Shown here: positions 57,649 through 62,109 of the stretch, one piece after another | Position numbering within the stretch: the stretch's first letter is position 1 | How the letters are laid out: every line of letters begins with the position of its first letter | Sequence record: OP870145.1 | Length of the DNA: 64,000 nt | Direction: 5' to 3' (one strand) | Source: Escherichia phage vB_Eco_F26 | Made by a program: the position numbers and the translations under genes | Notes under the pieces: model-generated | The model's input: the letters and a program-made list of their open reading frames with translations, nothing else | What the model was told of the DNA's origin: nothing | Databases searched by the model: none

Positions 57649-58284
57649 TCACAGTTCAGATGCTACAGTGATTACAGCTTCAATGTTTTCTGCCGAGCGT
57701 TTAATGTCAAGATACACATTACCGTTTTTAGCGATTTTACATGACATTCCGATGTCAGTAAATTTCTGAATATGATGTTCCATCATTTTATATCCAAAAA
57801 TTCGCATATTTCCATTGTTGTTAATTTCAAAATTACGAATTCCGTGAGTGCGTTTTTCTAAAATAGCGAGATAGTTACTGCGATAAGTTTCAACCTTTTT
57901 AAGAACAAATCCATTTTCATCTAAAAGTTTTAACATGAGGTCTTTATCTTCTTTCATATCGGAAGTAATCTCACGAGCTTTACGAGTTGCTCGTTTTTTC
58001 AGCAGTTCCGGAGCATTTTCCTGTGCGTATAAAGTTGCTGCATTTGAAATAATATCCTGAGCTTCACCTGTAATGATTAATCCATCACCAGATTTCTCCA
58101 CCAGGCCTTTTTTAATCAATACCCCAATATTACTATTAACTACTGCGTTACCTAAATCTGGATGCACCTCACGAACTTCTGCAGCTGTAATGAAATCTTT
58201 CTTAGCAATGGTAATTAAAATCGCAGCAGTTTTTTCATTCAGAACATCGTTAGAAGCTTTGATAATGTAAGTTACTTTAGACAT
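57649..58284 (-). CDS. motA: MotA middle transcription activator
   Basis: 211 aa; T4 MotA length and position. Confidence 0.9.
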   Translation of the reverse strand: MSKVTYIIKASNDVLNEKTAAILITIAKKDFITAAEVREVHPDLGNAVVNSNIGVLIKKGLVEKSGDGLIITGEAQDIISNAATLYAQENAPELLKKRATRKAREITSDMKEDKDLMLKLLDENGFVLKKVETYRSNYLAILEKRTHGIRNFEINNNGNMRIFGYKMMEHHIQKFTDIGMSCKIAKNGNVYLDIKRSAENIEAVITVASEL

Positions 58285-58355: not shown

Positions 58356-58387
58356 CGTTTTGTGAAAAAAAAATTTTAAATAAAAAA

Positions 58388-58407
58388 GGGAGAGCCGAGG
58401 CTCTCCC
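58388..58407 (-). terminator. GC hairpin
   Basis: gggagagcc-gagg-ctctccc. Confidence 0.5.
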
Positions 58408-58412
58408 TAAAA

Positions 58413-58562
58413 TTACTGCATGACTGTGATAACTGTCATGATAACACGTTGAATTCCGAACGCAAGAAGACCTCCTGCTACGGCTGGAACAACGCCTAAA
58501 CCCGCCAGTAAAATGCTACCAGATACTAATGCAGCGCTTGTAATACCTATAAATGGACTCAT
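58413..58562 (-). CDS. small hydrophobic membrane protein (49 aa, not in ORF track)
   Basis: ATG overlaps gene 52 stop (ATGA); SD GAGGAA; MSPFIGITSAALVSGSILLAGLGVVPAVAGG... Confidence 0.45.
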   Translation of the reverse strand: MSPFIGITSAALVSGSILLAGLGVVPAVAGGLLAFGIQRVIMTVITVMQ

Positions 58563-59887
58563 TTGATTTCCTCTAAATCTTTGGTGTATTCTGTAACTAC
58601 ATCAGTAGTTTTCCAATATTCGTTTTCTTCTTTCTTAGCTTTAGCTTCTTCAGCAAGTTTCTTCGCTTCATCGGAAGTCATATGAAAAATATTCATTCCA
58701 ACTAGTTTATCAACATAAGAAGAATACATATCGATTTTCGAAAGTTCTTCGGTCAGTTCTTTACGAGTTTTACCTTGTACAACAATTTCACCTGAAATTA
58801 CTTTCTTAATGAAATGTGCCTTGGCAAAGGCTAAACGAAAAGCTGACTCAGTTTCTTTAATTTTGTTATCAATTCGTTTTTGGACATAAGTTTTACGAAC
58901 TTCAACAAAGTCTTTAATTAAATCAACTACGTTATCGTAAACTTGTAGTTTTCCTTTCTCATTAATAACCGTAATATTCTGAGAACGACGCTCAATCAAC
59001 CCGAAGTCTTTCATAATTTTTGCATGACGTTCTTCTTCATTATCGCTCAAAGAATATTCTTTGCGGAATTTAACTTTGAATCCAAAACCATGCTCACCAC
59101 AAGCATCATCCCATGTAATGAAGCCTTTATCTTCAAGTGGGTCTAAGATTTTACTCACATAAGTTTCACGATCATACTTATACGGAATCTCAGTGATATG
59201 CATTTGAGTTCGTGAAGTAAACTTATATGTTCCACGAATTTCATATTGCCCATCAATTTCAACGACTTCACCACGAAATTCTGGGAATTCTACCTTCGGT
59301 TTAGTTACTTTCTTTCCTTGGAGAGCTTGCAATACAGCTTTCTTGACAGAAGAAACACTATGAGGAAGAATGTAAGTTGCATAACCAGTTGCAATACCGG
59401 AAACGCCATTAAGAAGAACAGTAGGAATAACAGGCAAATAGAAAGCAGGCGGAATGTGTTCTTTATCTTGATGTACCGGAGCATATTCAGTATCTTTATA
59501 TACGTTATAGAAATTTTTACTTACACGAGCAAAAATATAACGACTTGCCGCTGCCTTTTGGACAGTACGAGAACCAAAGTTTCCTTGACCATCTAATAGA
59601 GGAAAGTTATTATTCCAAGTATTAGCCATCAAAGCACCTGCGTCTTGCGCAGAGTTTTCACCATGATGATATCCAAGGTCCGCTACACCACCTGCAATAG
59701 AAGCGAGTTTGTGAAACTTATCTTTATTTCCTCGTGCCAAATCAAGAGCTCGAGCAATAACAAATCGTTGAACTGGCTTAAATCCATCAATCATATTTGG
59801 AATGGCACGATTTTCAACCGTGTACATAGCATAAGCCAATGCTTCATTATCAATGATACTTTTTAAATCGCGATTATTCAGTTGCAT
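58559..59887 (-). CDS. 52: topoisomerase II medium subunit gp52
   Basis: 442 aa; GyrA-like catalytic Tyr region. Confidence 0.9.
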   Translation of the reverse strand: MQLNNRDLKSIIDNEALAYAMYTVENRAIPNMIDGFKPVQRFVIARALDLARGNKDKFHKLASIAGGVADLGYHHGENSAQDAGALMANTWNNNFPLLDGQGNFGSRTVQKAAASRYIFARVSKNFYNVYKDTEYAPVHQDKEHIPPAFYLPVIPTVLLNGVSGIATGYATYILPHSVSSVKKAVLQALQGKKVTKPKVEFPEFRGEVVEIDGQYEIRGTYKFTSRTQMHITEIPYKYDRETYVSKILDPLEDKGFITWDDACGEHGFGFKVKFRKEYSLSDNEEERHAKIMKDFGLIERRSQNITVINEKGKLQVYDNVVDLIKDFVEVRKTYVQKRIDNKIKETESAFRLAFAKAHFIKKVISGEIVVQGKTRKELTEELSKIDMYSSYVDKLVGMNIFHMTSDEAKKLAEEAKAKKEENEYWKTTDVVTEYTKDLEEIK

Positions 59888-59891
59888 AAAT

Positions 59892-60032
59892 TTACCATAC
59901 TAGTGAATGTAGTGCCATAATAACATCAGAAATGAAAAGCACGACTTGAATTAATCCGAACATTATTCCGTAATATAATGCTATCAATAAAATAGCAAGG
60001 GCTAATGAATAGCCCAAGATTTTCTTAATCAT
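59892..60032 (-). CDS. small membrane protein (46 aa, not in ORF track)
   Basis: hydrophobic MIKKILGYSLALAILLIALYYGIMFGLIQVVLFI... Confidence 0.4.
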   Translation of the reverse strand: MIKKILGYSLALAILLIALYYGIMFGLIQVVLFISDVIMALHSLVW

Positions 60033-60183
60033 TAGTAGATAACAACACAAATGTTAAATATGCACACATACCCTGAGCTAAAGCTTGCGAAAACACACTG
60101 CTGGCATCAATACAGATAGTTAAAACACATGCTACTATCCAACAAATAAATGAAATAACTCCTAATAATTTTGCAATATTCAT
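60025..60183 (-). CDS. ac: Ac-like small membrane protein
   Basis: 52 aa from ATG with SD GAGGAG; MNIAKLLGVISFICWIVACVLTIC... Confidence 0.5.
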   Translation of the reverse strand: MNIAKLLGVISFICWIVACVLTICIDASSVFSQALAQGMCAYLTFVLLSTND

Positions 60184-60193
60184 AATATTCTCC

Positions 60194-60349
60194 TCAACTA
60201 TTTTTAGAACCAATGTACGCGAATAATGATAAAATCGCTAATACGCCCTGAGCTGATGCTTGCAAAAATACTGAAGTTTCTCCAGTTATTACTGTTCCGA
60301 TGCATAAAAAGAACCAACAGAAAAAGGCTATACCGTGAACAAATTTCAT
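60194..60349 (-). CDS. Ac-like small membrane protein, tandem paralog
   Basis: 51 aa; shares SVF-QA-AQG motif and hydrophobic pattern with 60025..60183. Confidence 0.45.
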   Translation of the reverse strand: MKFVHGIAFFCWFFLCIGTVITGETSVFLQASAQGVLAILSLFAYIGSKNS

Positions 60350-60356
60350 ATTTTCC

Positions 60357-60437
60357 TCACTGGCGTCCGAAGACGCCTTTGGTTTTAAGATTGTTACGAT
60401 AGAACTGCATCACGTGTTCGTTATGGAAATTACTCAT
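60357..60437 (-). CDS. stp: Stp peptide (26 aa)
   Basis: [26 protein letters not shown]; start overlaps ndd stop (TAATG). Confidence 0.7.
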
Positions 60438-60895
60438 TAATATGCCTGCAAAACAAATTTAAAGTTATCAGCCAACATACGGTTCATTTCTTCAAGCGTT
60501 TGATACTCAGAATGATGGTTACGAGTAAACGCCAAAGCTAACTGACCTTTTCCAAATCCTGTCGTCAGAGGTTTCATCTTAGAAGCAGGCAGATAAAACA
60601 CTGTGTATGGAACATTGTTATTTGCAATAGTACGCGCAAGCTGAGACCGACGCTGACGAATATGACTTAAAACCGCACTGAATCCTTGCTTAGAACGCTG
60701 ATTACCTACATAAAATCGTGCAGACACGCATGGATTACTAAATGGACGACCATCTAATTTACTCACTAAAAAGTAAAATCCAGGTTTAGATAAAATATCT
60801 TTATGCGGAGTTCCCAAAAACCACTCACCACCCTTGATTGTACCAATAACAGTAGCGCCTGCGTTGTTCAGATCAGTAACAGTCATGTATTTCAT
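60437..60895 (-). CDS. ndd: Ndd nucleoid disruption protein
   Basis: Start at [11 protein letters not shown] with SD GAGGAA; T4 synteny. Confidence 0.75.
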
Positions 60896-60953
60896 ATTAA
60901 TTTCCTCTAAATTATTTTCTACTCCATGGCCGCATGAATACGCGGCCATTAAA

Positions 60954-61169: not shown

Positions 61170-61284
61170 AATTCACCTCAAGGAGTATAAAATCCGAATG
61201 CAGTTGTTGACCATCCCATCCAATATGGAAAATTTGCACCAATGTAAAACATAAGAATATAAAACCAAATGTTTAGTAAATTCA

Positions 61285-61503
61285 TTATTTTACACCATTC
61301 CAAATTGTTTCAACTACAGATTTTAAGCCATTTTGATGAATATCCATTCCGACTACCGCCATCAAATAGATTCCAACTACAACTGAACCTAAGGCAAAAA
61401 TCAGCATAAAAATGAATAAAGCCGGAAAAATATTATCGAAAAACCATTCAATAAATGTAAAAGCACTACGCTTACGTTTCATATTTTCCTCACATAAATC
61501 CAA
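61285..61503 (-). CDS. hypothetical membrane protein
   Basis: 72 aa with hydrophobic segment. Confidence 0.4.
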   Translation of the reverse strand: MDLCEENMKRKRSAFTFIEWFFDNIFPALFIFMLIFALGSVVVGIYLMAVVGMDIHQNGLKSVVETIWNGVK

Positions 61504-61603
61504 AATAAGCGTTTAACATATCAATCATTAAAACGATTGGGAATATACTCAAAACTATTAGTATTATAACTACATTCCATATAGCTTTAACAATCTTTTT
61601 CAT
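61490..61603 (-). CDS. small membrane protein
   Basis: Start at internal ATG MKKIVKAIW just after promoter and SD GGAGGAACA. Confidence 0.4.
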   Translation of the reverse strand: MKKIVKAIWNVVIILIVLSIFPIVLMIDMLNAYFGFM

Positions 61604-61627
61604 TTTCTGTTCCTCCGTAGTTGATAG

Positions 61628-61661
61628 GGTAATAATACCACGGAAGAACAGTCCTGTAAAC
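61628..61661 (-). promoter_or_regulatory. early promoter with conserved leader
   Basis: minus strand GTTTACaggactgttcttccgtgGTATTATTAccctatcaactacggaggaaca. Confidence 0.45.
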
Positions 61662-61845
61662 AACTTTTTAAAAATATTCGTAATAAATGTGAATACCAAC
61701 TACTACCGCTGAAACCTGTGCAACCCACCACGCACAAGCAATAAGTACAGAATTCATAATTTTCATAATAACCTCATTACAAAAGTAAATGTTAAACAAA
61801 TTACTGGAATACTAATTAACCAAACAAAACACCACCACAGTGAAC

Positions 61846-62109
61846 TCATAGCTCAATCTCAATGATTTCAAGATTATTTTCTTTAATAGCTTTCTTTAAA
61901 TCATCGTAAATAAGAACTTCCCAAGAATTGTTTAAATCACCATTCAACAAACGCTCTTGTTGCAATTTATCAGTAAGATATGGTTGATCTGATTCATATT
62001 TAGACAATCCCAATGAAATAAATGATGTTGCATCATCAATTTCAGAATATTGTACATAAACAAATTCACCTGTGATTTTATGTTTAACATAAAAGAATTT
62101 AAATTTCAT
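61846..62109 (-). CDS. hypothetical protein
   Basis: 87 aa; preceded by near-identical promoter-leader. Confidence 0.45.
   Translation of the reverse strand: MKFKFFYVKHKITGEFVYVQYSEIDDATSFISLGLSKYESDQPYLTDKLQQERLLNGDLNNSWEVLIYDDLKKAIKENNLEIIEIEL

Follow-up and report, generated by a model that had tools for sequence, protein, structure and literature searches.

Two divergent Ac-family peptides are encoded in tandem between stp and 52.1 in a probable Tequatrovirus

The natural role of the phage T4 peptide Ac has been a puzzle since the 1960s: it is a phage peptide that makes the phage's own infection drug-sensitive. T4-infected cells, and E. coli cells expressing Ac, accumulate acriflavine and become sensitive to it; expression of ac cuts E. 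coli CFU on acriflavine about 1000-fold (10.1101/2025.06.30.662393). On acriflavine plates, phages with an ac deletion, an ac frameshift or the substitution G38R reach ~1e10 PFU/ml, versus 2.4e6 for wild type, which corresponds to spontaneous resistant mutants at roughly 2e-4; G38R, which lies in the Ac motif, abolishes acriflavine sensitisation, while insertion of a Thr near the C-terminus is neutral (10.1101/2025.06.30.662393). The acridine-sensitivity role is established for Ac of the T4/T2 type only, and AcrAB-TolC as the target of Ac is only a proposal of that preprint (10.1101/2025.06.30.662393), which PMC13250531 takes up as an assumption. The neighbouring T4 peptide Stp inhibits the type Ic restriction enzyme EcoprrI, thereby activating the PrrC anticodon nuclease (PMC1484252). 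A deletion that removes 52.1 through denB (saDelta9) is viable (PMC6071114).

The window—the whole 64,000-nt stretch of DNA that was analysed—very probably derives from a Tequatrovirus (a T4-like phage). This assignment belongs to an explanation covering family identity, shared activity and origin, in which, taken as a whole, we place high confidence. Where T4 has a single ac gene (NP_049877, 51 aa; PF26944; phrog_2501), the window has two: ac1, in the same position as T4 ac and with the same 8-nt overlap of 52.1, and ac2, for which T4 has no counterpart. When the DNA of the window is aligned with that of T4 and Aplg8, the difference falls in a 166-bp stretch that is bounded by an imperfect repeat (TGAGGAaAAT-ATGAA / TGAGGAgAATattATGAA). 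The genes of this region lie on the minus strand, in the transcription order ndd, stp, ac2, ac1, 52.1, gene 52, motA.1, followed by a terminator:

60437–60895, minus strand: ndd, nucleoid disruption protein (open reading frame list; T4 and Aplg8 synteny and annotations; direct reading)
60357–60437, minus strand: stp, 26-aa peptide, identical to T4 Stp
60362–60377, minus strand: C(UUCG)G tetraloop hairpin, GGCGUC-UUCG-GACGCC, inside the last stp codons
60354–60358, minus strand: ac2 Shine-Dalgarno sequence GAGGA, 4 nt (AAAT) before the ATG (direct reading)
60185–60350, no strand assigned: 166-bp stretch present in the window and absent from T4 (DNA alignment)
60194–60349, minus strand: ac2, 51-aa Ac-family member (GETSVFLQASAQG type), absent from T4 (sequence comparison; AlphaFold2 model)
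60190–60195, minus strand: ac1 Shine-Dalgarno sequence GAGGAG, 6 nt before the ATG (direct reading)
60025–60183, minus strand: ac1, 52 aa, T4 Ac ortholog (DASSVFSQALAQG type) (sequence comparison)
59892–60032, minus strand: 52.1, 46-aa membrane peptide (DUF7396; PF24129, E=4.8e-22)
58559–59887, minus strand: gene 52, DNA topoisomerase II medium subunit, 442 aa (T4 and Aplg8 annotations)
58413–58562, minus strand: motA.1, 49-aa hydrophobic peptide (phrog_3487, E=2e-31)
58387–58408, minus strand: intrinsic terminator, AGGGAGAGCC-TCGG-CTCTCCCT plus T-run, closing the co-directional gene block

The location of ac between ndd/stp and 52.1/gene 52 is common to the window, T4, Aplg8, RB51, RB33, UPEC01 and SHSML-52-1, and recurs in F2, phi25-307, Jiaodavirus phages and L016. 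At the upstream end of the block, ndd has the T4-type start MKYM, preceded by the Shine-Dalgarno sequence AGAGGAAA; its ORF has an alternative start further upstream, the ATG at 60949, which would give 170 aa. The ndd stop codon overlaps the stp start (TAATG). The identity of stp is given by its position just 3' of ndd, its 26-aa product and its profile matches (PF08133, E=2e-21, 75.3 bits vs a gathering cut-off of 25; phrog_6763, E=4e-21). Compared with T4, where a 100% identical Stp is encoded at the same place between ndd and ac, the only change is the downstream neighbour: ac in T4, ac2 in the window.

Tight packing continues downstream. Both ac genes have strong Shine-Dalgarno sequences of their own: that of ac2 overlaps the stp stop codon, and that of ac1 overlaps the ac2 stop codon TGA. 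The last 8 nt of ac1 (ATGATTAA) are shared with the 52.1 start, and the motA.1 start overlaps the gene 52 stop by 4 nt. The overlap with ac1, combined with the absence of a Shine-Dalgarno sequence of its own, suggests that 52.1 is translationally coupled. The tetraloop hairpin sits directly 5' of the ac2 ribosome-binding site (MFE -18.4 kcal/mol in a 71-nt context, z=-3.1) and is kept in T4, RB51, RB33 and UPEC01; since no sense-strand T-run follows it, it is no intrinsic terminator in the sense direction. The homologous position of the terminator beyond motA.1 is likewise annotated as such in Aplg8, and the sole Rfam match, a far sub-threshold one to CrcZ, falls on this terminator hairpin. 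A strict Mot-box scan of 58–64 kb returned no promoter, and a sigma-70 scan without enrichment gave nothing significant near the ac cluster. The arrangement is that expected of one polycistronic mRNA, which would run from ndd through stp, ac2, ac1, 52.1 and 52 to motA.1 and end at 58387–58408, and from which both ac1 and ac2 would be translated.

An earlier note on this DNA, made from the sequence alone, had placed Stp after the two Ac-like ORFs. Stp does adjoin the pair, but in the direction of transcription it precedes both ac genes. The note also described a cluster of membrane and anti-defence peptides; a documented defence-related role exists for Stp, and for Stp only among these peptides. 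Its proposal that a 60-aa cut-off had missed flanking small membrane peptides was correct: they are gp52.1, a DUF7396 member at 78.3 bits against PF24129 (gathering cut-off 27), and MotA.1.

The earlier note also stated that two consecutive hydrophobic ORFs of ~51 aa share the motif SVF.QA.AQG. This is the case: the motif occupies residues 29–38 of the ac1 product (MNIAKLLGVISFICWIVACVLTICIDASSVFSQALAQGMCAYLTFVLLSTND, 52 aa) and residues 26–35 of the ac2 product (MKFVHGIAFFCWFFLCIGTVITGETSVFLQASAQGVLAILSLFAYIGSKNS, 51 aa). Given their small size and hydrophobicity (GRAVY 1.15–1.42), the two peptides could resemble each other by chance, as a product of composition. Alignment of the two speaks clearly against this reading, which we consider almost certainly wrong. 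With compositional adjustment, BLASTP finds 17/40 identities (43%) at E=6e-10. The Smith-Waterman score is 85; composition-preserving shuffles average 24.1 (sd 4.9; z=12.5), and 0/20,000 of them reach the observed value. Neighbours of equal hydrophobicity stay at noise: 52.1 and MotA.1, considered as further Ac paralogs, score 21–25 against either Ac, which is the shuffle level, and hhalign gives 52.1 a probability of 0.1% as an Ac relative.

Both peptides match one PHROG family, phrog_2501, over its full length and both at about 1e-25 (Ac1: E=3.7e-25, residues 1–51 on profile positions 1–50 of 50; Ac2: E=4.9e-26, residues 1–50 on 1–50 of 50). This is the direct family score for the window genes; membership in PF26944 (Phage_T4_Ac) comes via close homologs of both types, for which the match is precomputed (P0004, P0007, P0008–P0015). 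Eight residues are invariant in an alignment of 14 Ac sequences (C, W, T, V, F, Q, Q, G), and the family motif W...T...(S/T)VF.Q..QG is found at the start of helix 2 in both Ac1 and Ac2. An HMM search of 1.8 billion representatives returned 11 clusters at E<=0.001; eight consist of small Ac-like phage peptides, and the remaining three, of repetitive proteins, look spurious. The 'ac-like' label of the earlier note thus names the right family, but falls short for 60025–60183: this is the T4 ac ortholog itself, the sole difference being one inserted Thr near the C-terminus, a variant that the preprint reports as phenotypically neutral (10.1101/2025.06.30.662393). The ac2 product resembles T4 Ac in family, size, two-helix arrangement and motif, down to the Gly at which G38R inactivates T4 Ac, yet is only about 40% identical to it.

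Hydropathy profiles show two hydrophobic helices in each peptide, with a short turn between them that carries one acidic residue. The AlphaFold2 model of Ac2 contains helices at residues 2–21 and 26–49 on either side of the turn (mean pLDDT 79), and the ESMfold description of T4 Ac agrees with this two-helix layout (10.1101/2025.06.30.662393). A search for solved structures of Ac relatives returned none at E<=1. With this layout, Ac1 and Ac2 are predicted to form inner-membrane hairpins. The Gly of the motif is G38 in ac1 and G35 in ac2; the retention of this residue and of the rest of the motif in ac2 suggests that Ac2 has the basic activity of T4 Ac. The likely function of both peptides is to raise drug accumulation. 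Mechanistically, Ac would interfere with an inner-membrane component through which the host controls drug efflux or permeability, with AcrAB-TolC as the proposed, putative target. The two peptides may do the same job, or each may have partners of its own.

A functional analogy can be drawn with AcrZ, a 49-aa membrane peptide of E. coli that binds to AcrB, an efflux pump, and modulates it. Both are inner-membrane peptides of similar small size. They differ in that AcrZ has one transmembrane helix while Ac is predicted to have two, and in that AcrZ assists the efflux of some drugs while Ac is proposed to block efflux. The likeness does not extend to sequence kinship (hhalign of the Ac alignment against AcrZ: probability 0.2%, E=0.34).

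Closer relatives of ac2 than T4 ac are found in other phages. The 'ac' proteins of RB51, RB33 and RB68 are 71–76% identical to window ac2, and the single ac of Gaprivervirus, Mosigvirus and Jiaodavirus phages 45–72%; all have the GET(S/T)V core and the same upstream context (stp or ndd, then the Shine-Dalgarno sequence GAGGAAAAT). Those phages have no ac besides this one; it terminates in ...ND and runs into the 52.1 start. Window ac2 terminates in ...NS, a second ribosome-binding site and ac1 come next, and the overlap with 52.1 is gone. By these comparisons, ac2 is the ortholog of the sole ac of RB51, RB33, RB68 and the Gaprivervirus, Mosigvirus and Jiaodavirus phages examined.

Is ac2, then, a redundant and decaying duplicate without a function of its own, tolerated in a dispensable region? 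Relaxed constraint would fit its rate of evolution, much faster than that of ac1 (dN/dS 0.33–0.67 for the ac2 type vs about 0–0.06 among ac1 orthologs). T4 and about 400 relatives live without ac2, and under laboratory conditions the entire region can be dispensed with (PMC6071114). However, the dN/dS of the ac2 type is still <1, the core of the motif is invariant, and an intact ORF with a strong Shine-Dalgarno sequence is present in every two-copy phage looked at; in 47 records the ORF is both intact and >=95% identical. Moreover, RB51, RB33 and three other genera have no ac except that of the ac2 type, which is therefore a functional lineage rather than a remnant. We thus regard decay as very unlikely. 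The intact ORF, the single-copy orthologs in four genera, the Shine-Dalgarno sequence and the dN/dS <1 all argue, at the level of sequence, for ac2 as a real gene.

A different proposal is that Ac1 and Ac2 are specialised, acting on different host membrane targets (efflux pumps, host species) or jointly as a heterodimer. The two lineages have long been kept apart and present different transmembrane faces around the invariant motif, and the tandem form is known from phages with Escherichia, Shigella, Yersinia and Citrobacter as isolation hosts. Yet a single ac, of one type or the other, suffices for most phages, a distribution that makes an obligatory heterodimer impossible, and we judge specialisation unlikely. 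A broader version holds that T4 ac is a derived, Tequatrovirus-specific type, that the widespread GETSVF type is probably ancestral, and that Ac1 and Ac2 are specialised (different targets, or a heteromer). This is a speculative and distinctly improbable combination; were it true, T4 ac mutants would cover half of a two-component system for manipulating drug efflux.

The preferred reading is of two homologous ac genes, both real, whose split is old. The tandem duplication suggested by the earlier note survives in part: the genes are true homologs lying side by side, but the event is not a recent one, and a joining of alleles accounts for the pair equally well. Ac1 and Ac2 are 37–45% identical, a divergence equal to that between Ac proteins from separate genera, and the nucleotide similarity of ac1 and ac2 is at the shuffle level, bar one short block; the event can therefore be neither dated nor given a direction from the DNA. 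The junction between the two ac genes is identical in six of six two-copy phages examined, and this common junction points to a single old origin of the pair.

What form that origin took could be either (i) ancient duplication with differential loss, leaving ac1 only in T4-type phages and the ac2 type only in RB51-type phages, or (ii) illegitimate (unequal) recombination that joined two ac alleles, of T4 type and RB33 type, from co-infecting Tequatroviruses; both fit equally. The joining of alleles, which we entertain as a real possibility short of an even chance, is in keeping with the genus-level divergence of the two peptides, and with the closest relative of Ac1 being not Ac2 but a single-copy metagenomic Ac (P0016; 53–55% identity). 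Both single-allele forms occur in the same genus with identical stp-ac spacers, the stp-ac2 flank of two-copy phages is RB33-like while their ac1-52.1 part is T4-like, and T-even genomes are highly mosaic. Less easily accommodated is the inter-ac spacer (AGTTGAGGAGAATATT), which is no clean join of two parental sequences: it needs about three more changes, one of them a T insertion to which ac2 owes its stop codon. The T4 junction is accounted for equally by ancient duplication followed by loss via the RBS/ATGAA repeat.

Two ac copies are present in about 49/525 phage records (about 9%; 574 places in the 525 records), and 50/552 records cover >=80% of the 701-bp query. The IMG/VR scan with the Ac alignment yielded only four loci, all single-copy and of T4 type. 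Phage 101117BS1, a candidate carrier of three ac genes with a locus likewise exactly 166 bp longer, has no third ac: its extra DNA lies between ndd and stp and encodes an unrelated two-helix product of 57 aa. PADLOC and NCBIfam searches returned nothing meaningful, a literature search found no paper discussing the second ac paralog, and an accessory-gene screen (PMC12373910) makes no mention of ac, stp or ndd.

The tandem ac pair is an already annotated, ordinary variant of a known plastic T-even region. Its interest lies in a comparative and genetic handle on the role of Ac—two deeply diverged lineages, of which T4 represents only the narrower and ~9% of records carry both—and in a practical annotation problem; beyond these, it is a mildly informative variant of a known locus. 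The under-annotation expected by the earlier note applies unevenly. T4 itself has motA.1, 52.1, ac and stp annotated in its reference, and at least 12 records already list 'acridine resistance (x2)'. Several deposited Tequatrovirus genomes, however, leave out stp, 52.1 or one ac copy in their annotation: stp is missing from the Aplg8 annotation, stp and 52.1 from that of pSs-1, and in Yersinia phage PST only ac2 is annotated. Among the matches listed (>=98% identity), 4/17 records have no feature under ac2. One record gives the name 'ac' to the paralog only and has no annotation for the T4 ortholog.

The window closes with 7 kb that correspond to the region from motA to ndd in a T4-like phage (genus Tequatrovirus); all genes there lie on the minus strand. 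In order of transcription, the features are as follows (ac1 and ac2 are our labels).

60437-60895, minus strand: ndd, nucleoid disruption protein
60357-60437, minus strand: stp, 26 aa
60194-60349, minus strand: ac2, 51 aa
60025-60183, minus strand: ac1, 52 aa
59892-60032, minus strand: 52.1, 46 aa (gp52.1, DUF7396, E=4.8e-22)
58559-59887, minus strand: gene 52, 442 aa
58413-58562, minus strand: motA.1, 49 aa (MotA.1, phrog_3487, E=2e-31)
58387-58408, minus strand: terminator, after motA.1
57649-58284, minus strand: motA, the last gene listed

An earlier note proposed that ac1 and ac2 are tandem, Ac-like paralogs adjoining stp, on the basis of a shared SVF.QA.AQG motif. The motif is indeed present in both ORFs, and four results rule out a likeness of hydrophobic composition only: (i) BLASTP with compositional adjustment aligns the two proteins with 17 of 40 identities (E=6e-10), (ii) their Smith-Waterman score of 85 (24.1±4.9 in shuffles) is reached by none of 20,000 composition-preserving shuffles, (iii) gp52.1 and MotA.1, which lie nearby and are just as hydrophobic, reach Smith-Waterman scores of only 21-25 with either Ac protein, and (iv) both ORFs match the Ac family profile phrog_2501 over its full length (ac1, E=3.7e-25; ac2, E=4.9e-26). 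Hence, ac1 and ac2 are homologs. The adjoining 26-aa ORF encodes a Stp identical to that of T4 (PF08133, E=2e-21), and the two flanking small peptides that the note pointed out are gp52.1 and MotA.1. The observation is thus correct and statistically solid, and its interpretation right in essence, with three corrections.

The tandem paralogy stands, but ac1 is more than ac-like: T4 has a single ac gene, and window ac1 is T4 Ac with one inserted Thr. The ac2 gene lies within 166 bases (60185-60350) that T4 lacks and that are flanked by an imperfect repeat, TGAGGAaAAT-ATGAA / TGAGGAgAATattATGAA, consisting of ribosome-binding site and start codon. The sole ac gene of phages RB51, RB33 and RB68 encodes a protein 71-76% identical to ac2, and has the same overlap with 52.1 as T4 ac has. 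The corresponding "GET(S/T)V" type is also the only ac in Gaprivervirus UPEC01, Mosigvirus SHSML-52-1 and phi25-307, phage F2 and the Jiaodavirus Klebsiella phages, and JS98-like and Erwinia phages hold more distant members. Only Tequatrovirus was found to have the T4-type "DASSVF" form, whose nearest relative (53-55% identity) is P0016, a single-copy metagenomic protein. T4 ac is a member of the narrower of two Ac lineages. P0016 itself (on T4-like metagenomic contig SRR8048111_24813) is intermediate between both types: its core reads GESRVF and its tail CAYLTF. Two further homologs are of irregular form. Phage T6 Ac (P0014, 49 aa) has a frameshifted C-terminus, which could bear on the differing proflavine sensitivity reported for T-even phages. 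In P0010, an 81-aa ORF called on a 9.5-kb Logan contig, a frameshift close to the 3' end of stp has joined Stp to Ac; this fusion may be genuine or may reflect a sequencing error.

The ac1/ac2 split is old, and its origin ambiguous. At 37-45% identity, Ac1 resembles Ac2 no more than Ac proteins from separate genera resemble one another, and the DNA similarity of the two genes is at the level of shuffled sequence, except for the block GCAAGCNTNAGCTCAGGG. An ancient duplication of a unit of ribosome-binding site and ac, with later loss of one copy through the repeat, fits these data, and the T4 junction matches exactly the expected product of a crossover in ATGAA. Unequal recombination between phages carrying the two ac alleles fits as well. 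In both scenarios, a clean junction would leave the two ORFs as one in-frame fusion (...AAT AGT GAG GAA AAT ATG...). The present inter-ac spacer contains an extra T, which creates the ac2 stop codon, and two further changes, so the junction does not appear to be fresh. Since it is identical in all six two-copy phages read (the window phage, Aplg8, T4_ev151, 101117BS1, PST and pSs-1), it points to a single origin of the two-copy arrangement.

A tblastn search with P0016 gave 574 places in 525 phage records, and therefore ~49 records with two copies; this agrees with the 50 of 552 records in which a 701-bp query was covered to at least 80%. An ac2 at least 95% identical is encoded in 47 records. 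Some ~410 records are T4-type single-copy (459 records with at least 80% coverage, minus the ~50 two-copy records), and RB51-type records form a smaller set.

Several features count for ac2 as a working gene. The ORF is intact in all two-copy phages; its Shine-Dalgarno sequence, GAGGA, lies 4 nt (AAAT) upstream of the ATG and overlaps the stp stop codon, while that of ac1, GAGGAG, lies 6 nt upstream and overlaps the ac2 stop codon. The core of the motif (C, W, T, V, F, Q, Q, G) is invariant across 14 sequences, and dN/dS among ac2-type genes is below 1 (0.33-0.67), although much higher than among ac1-type genes (0-0.06). Both 52.1 and stp start within the end of the preceding gene and have no Shine-Dalgarno sequence of their own, which suggests translational coupling. 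No promoter could be assigned to the cluster by a strict Mot-box scan of 58-64 kb or a sigma-70 scan. The last stp codons, directly 5' of the ac2 ribosome-binding site, form a very stable C(UUCG)G tetraloop hairpin (GGCGUC-UUCG-GACGCC, 60362-60377, minus strand), which is kept in all types (T4, RB51, RB33 and Gaprivervirus UPEC01). Because the sense strand has no T-run after it, a role in mRNA stability or processing is more likely for the hairpin than one in termination.

Both Ac proteins are predicted to consist of two hydrophobic helices and a short turn with one acidic residue (D26 in ac1, E24 in ac2); in hydropathy profiles, the conserved motif opens helix 2. An AlphaFold2 model of ac2 places the helices at 2-21 and 26-49 (pLDDT 79). 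T4 lacking ac is acriflavine-resistant, ac expressed alone sensitises E. coli ~1000-fold to acriflavine and also to ampicillin, and T4 Ac is inactivated by G38R (10.1101/2025.06.30.662393). Because ac2 keeps the equivalent glycine (G35) and the entire motif, it would be expected to share the basic activity of T4 Ac, and to be either redundant with ac1 or altered in partner specificity. Natural two-copy phages offer a simple genetic test of redundancy versus specialisation. Blockage of AcrAB-TolC by Ac was proposed (10.1101/2025.06.30.662393) and restated as an assumption in a 2026 PNAS paper; we hold this efflux-pump step to be possible rather than probable. Ac showed no sequence similarity to AcrZ, and none to solved structures or defence-system models.

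The ndd-ac slot is plastic and forms a hot spot of genes for tiny membrane proteins.

Contents of the ndd-ac slot
T4: stp alone
Window: stp and ac2
101117BS1, UPEC01 and Jiaodavirus Klebsiella phages: an additional 57-aa two-helix membrane ORF, between ndd and stp/ac
Metagenomic contig L016 (source of P0016; locus 720-902): a different TM ORF of at most 60 aa; no stp

The 57-aa ORF (pattern "M..F.MGY...CFERLCK.CG.Y."; 931-1104 in the 101117BS1 locus, 941-1114 in that of UPEC01, 1037-1210 in both Jiaodavirus loci) is unrelated to Ac, and overlaps the stp start in UPEC01 and 101117BS1. Of the peptides in this cluster, Stp alone has a documented role related to defence: it is established that Stp inhibits the type Ic enzyme EcoprrI and triggers PrrC (PMC1484252). 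Phage growth in the laboratory does not require the 52.1-to-denB block, all of which can be deleted (saDelta9; PMC6071114).

The suggestion that the cluster is under-annotated holds for individual records. Stp annotation is missing from the Aplg8 record, stp and 52.1 from that of pSs-1, and stp, the T4-ac ortholog and 52.1 from that of Yersinia phage PST (KF208315). The last applies "ac" to ac2 only, a trap for comparative work. No feature lies beneath ac2 in 4 of 17 listed records with an ac2 at least 98% identical, and Stp is named in only 4 of the 40 two-copy records listed. It does not hold in general: every gene of the cluster is annotated in the T4 reference, and dozens of genomes already have the tandem arrangement annotated, with "acridine resistance (x2)" on the pair in at least 12 GenBank records; Aplg8 YP_010066047 is 100% identical to window ac2. 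We found no paper discussing the second copy, and the survey in the 2025 preprint on T4 Ac was limited to BLASTN matches at 93-100% identity (10.1101/2025.06.30.662393).

When 12 kb around the site were used as query, many Tequatrovirus genomes matched at 93-96% identity; coverage was mosaic, and no genome aligned from end to end. Upstream of ndd and ndd.1, very small hydrophobic ORFs run on (61178-61849, minus strand); these are equivalents of T4 ndd.2 to ndd.6, including a 65-aa ndd.2a/ndd.3-like fusion form, and the majority fall below the 60-aa ORF cut-off. The ndd ORF can be extended upstream by 18 codons to an ATG at 60949 (60896-60949, minus strand), giving the 170 aa annotated in Aplg8 and RB33; the extension spans a perfect inverted repeat at 60926-60949 (ATGGCCGC-ATGAATAC-GCGGCCAT). 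A good Shine-Dalgarno sequence precedes the T4-type start (MKYM, 60895), so the 170-aa version probably reflects an annotation artefact. Finally, a terminator scan detected, on both strands, a GC-rich 6-bp inverted repeat inside the 52.1 coding sequence (GGGCTA-TTCAT-TAGCCC, 59999-60015), with identical bases in T4 and Aplg8.
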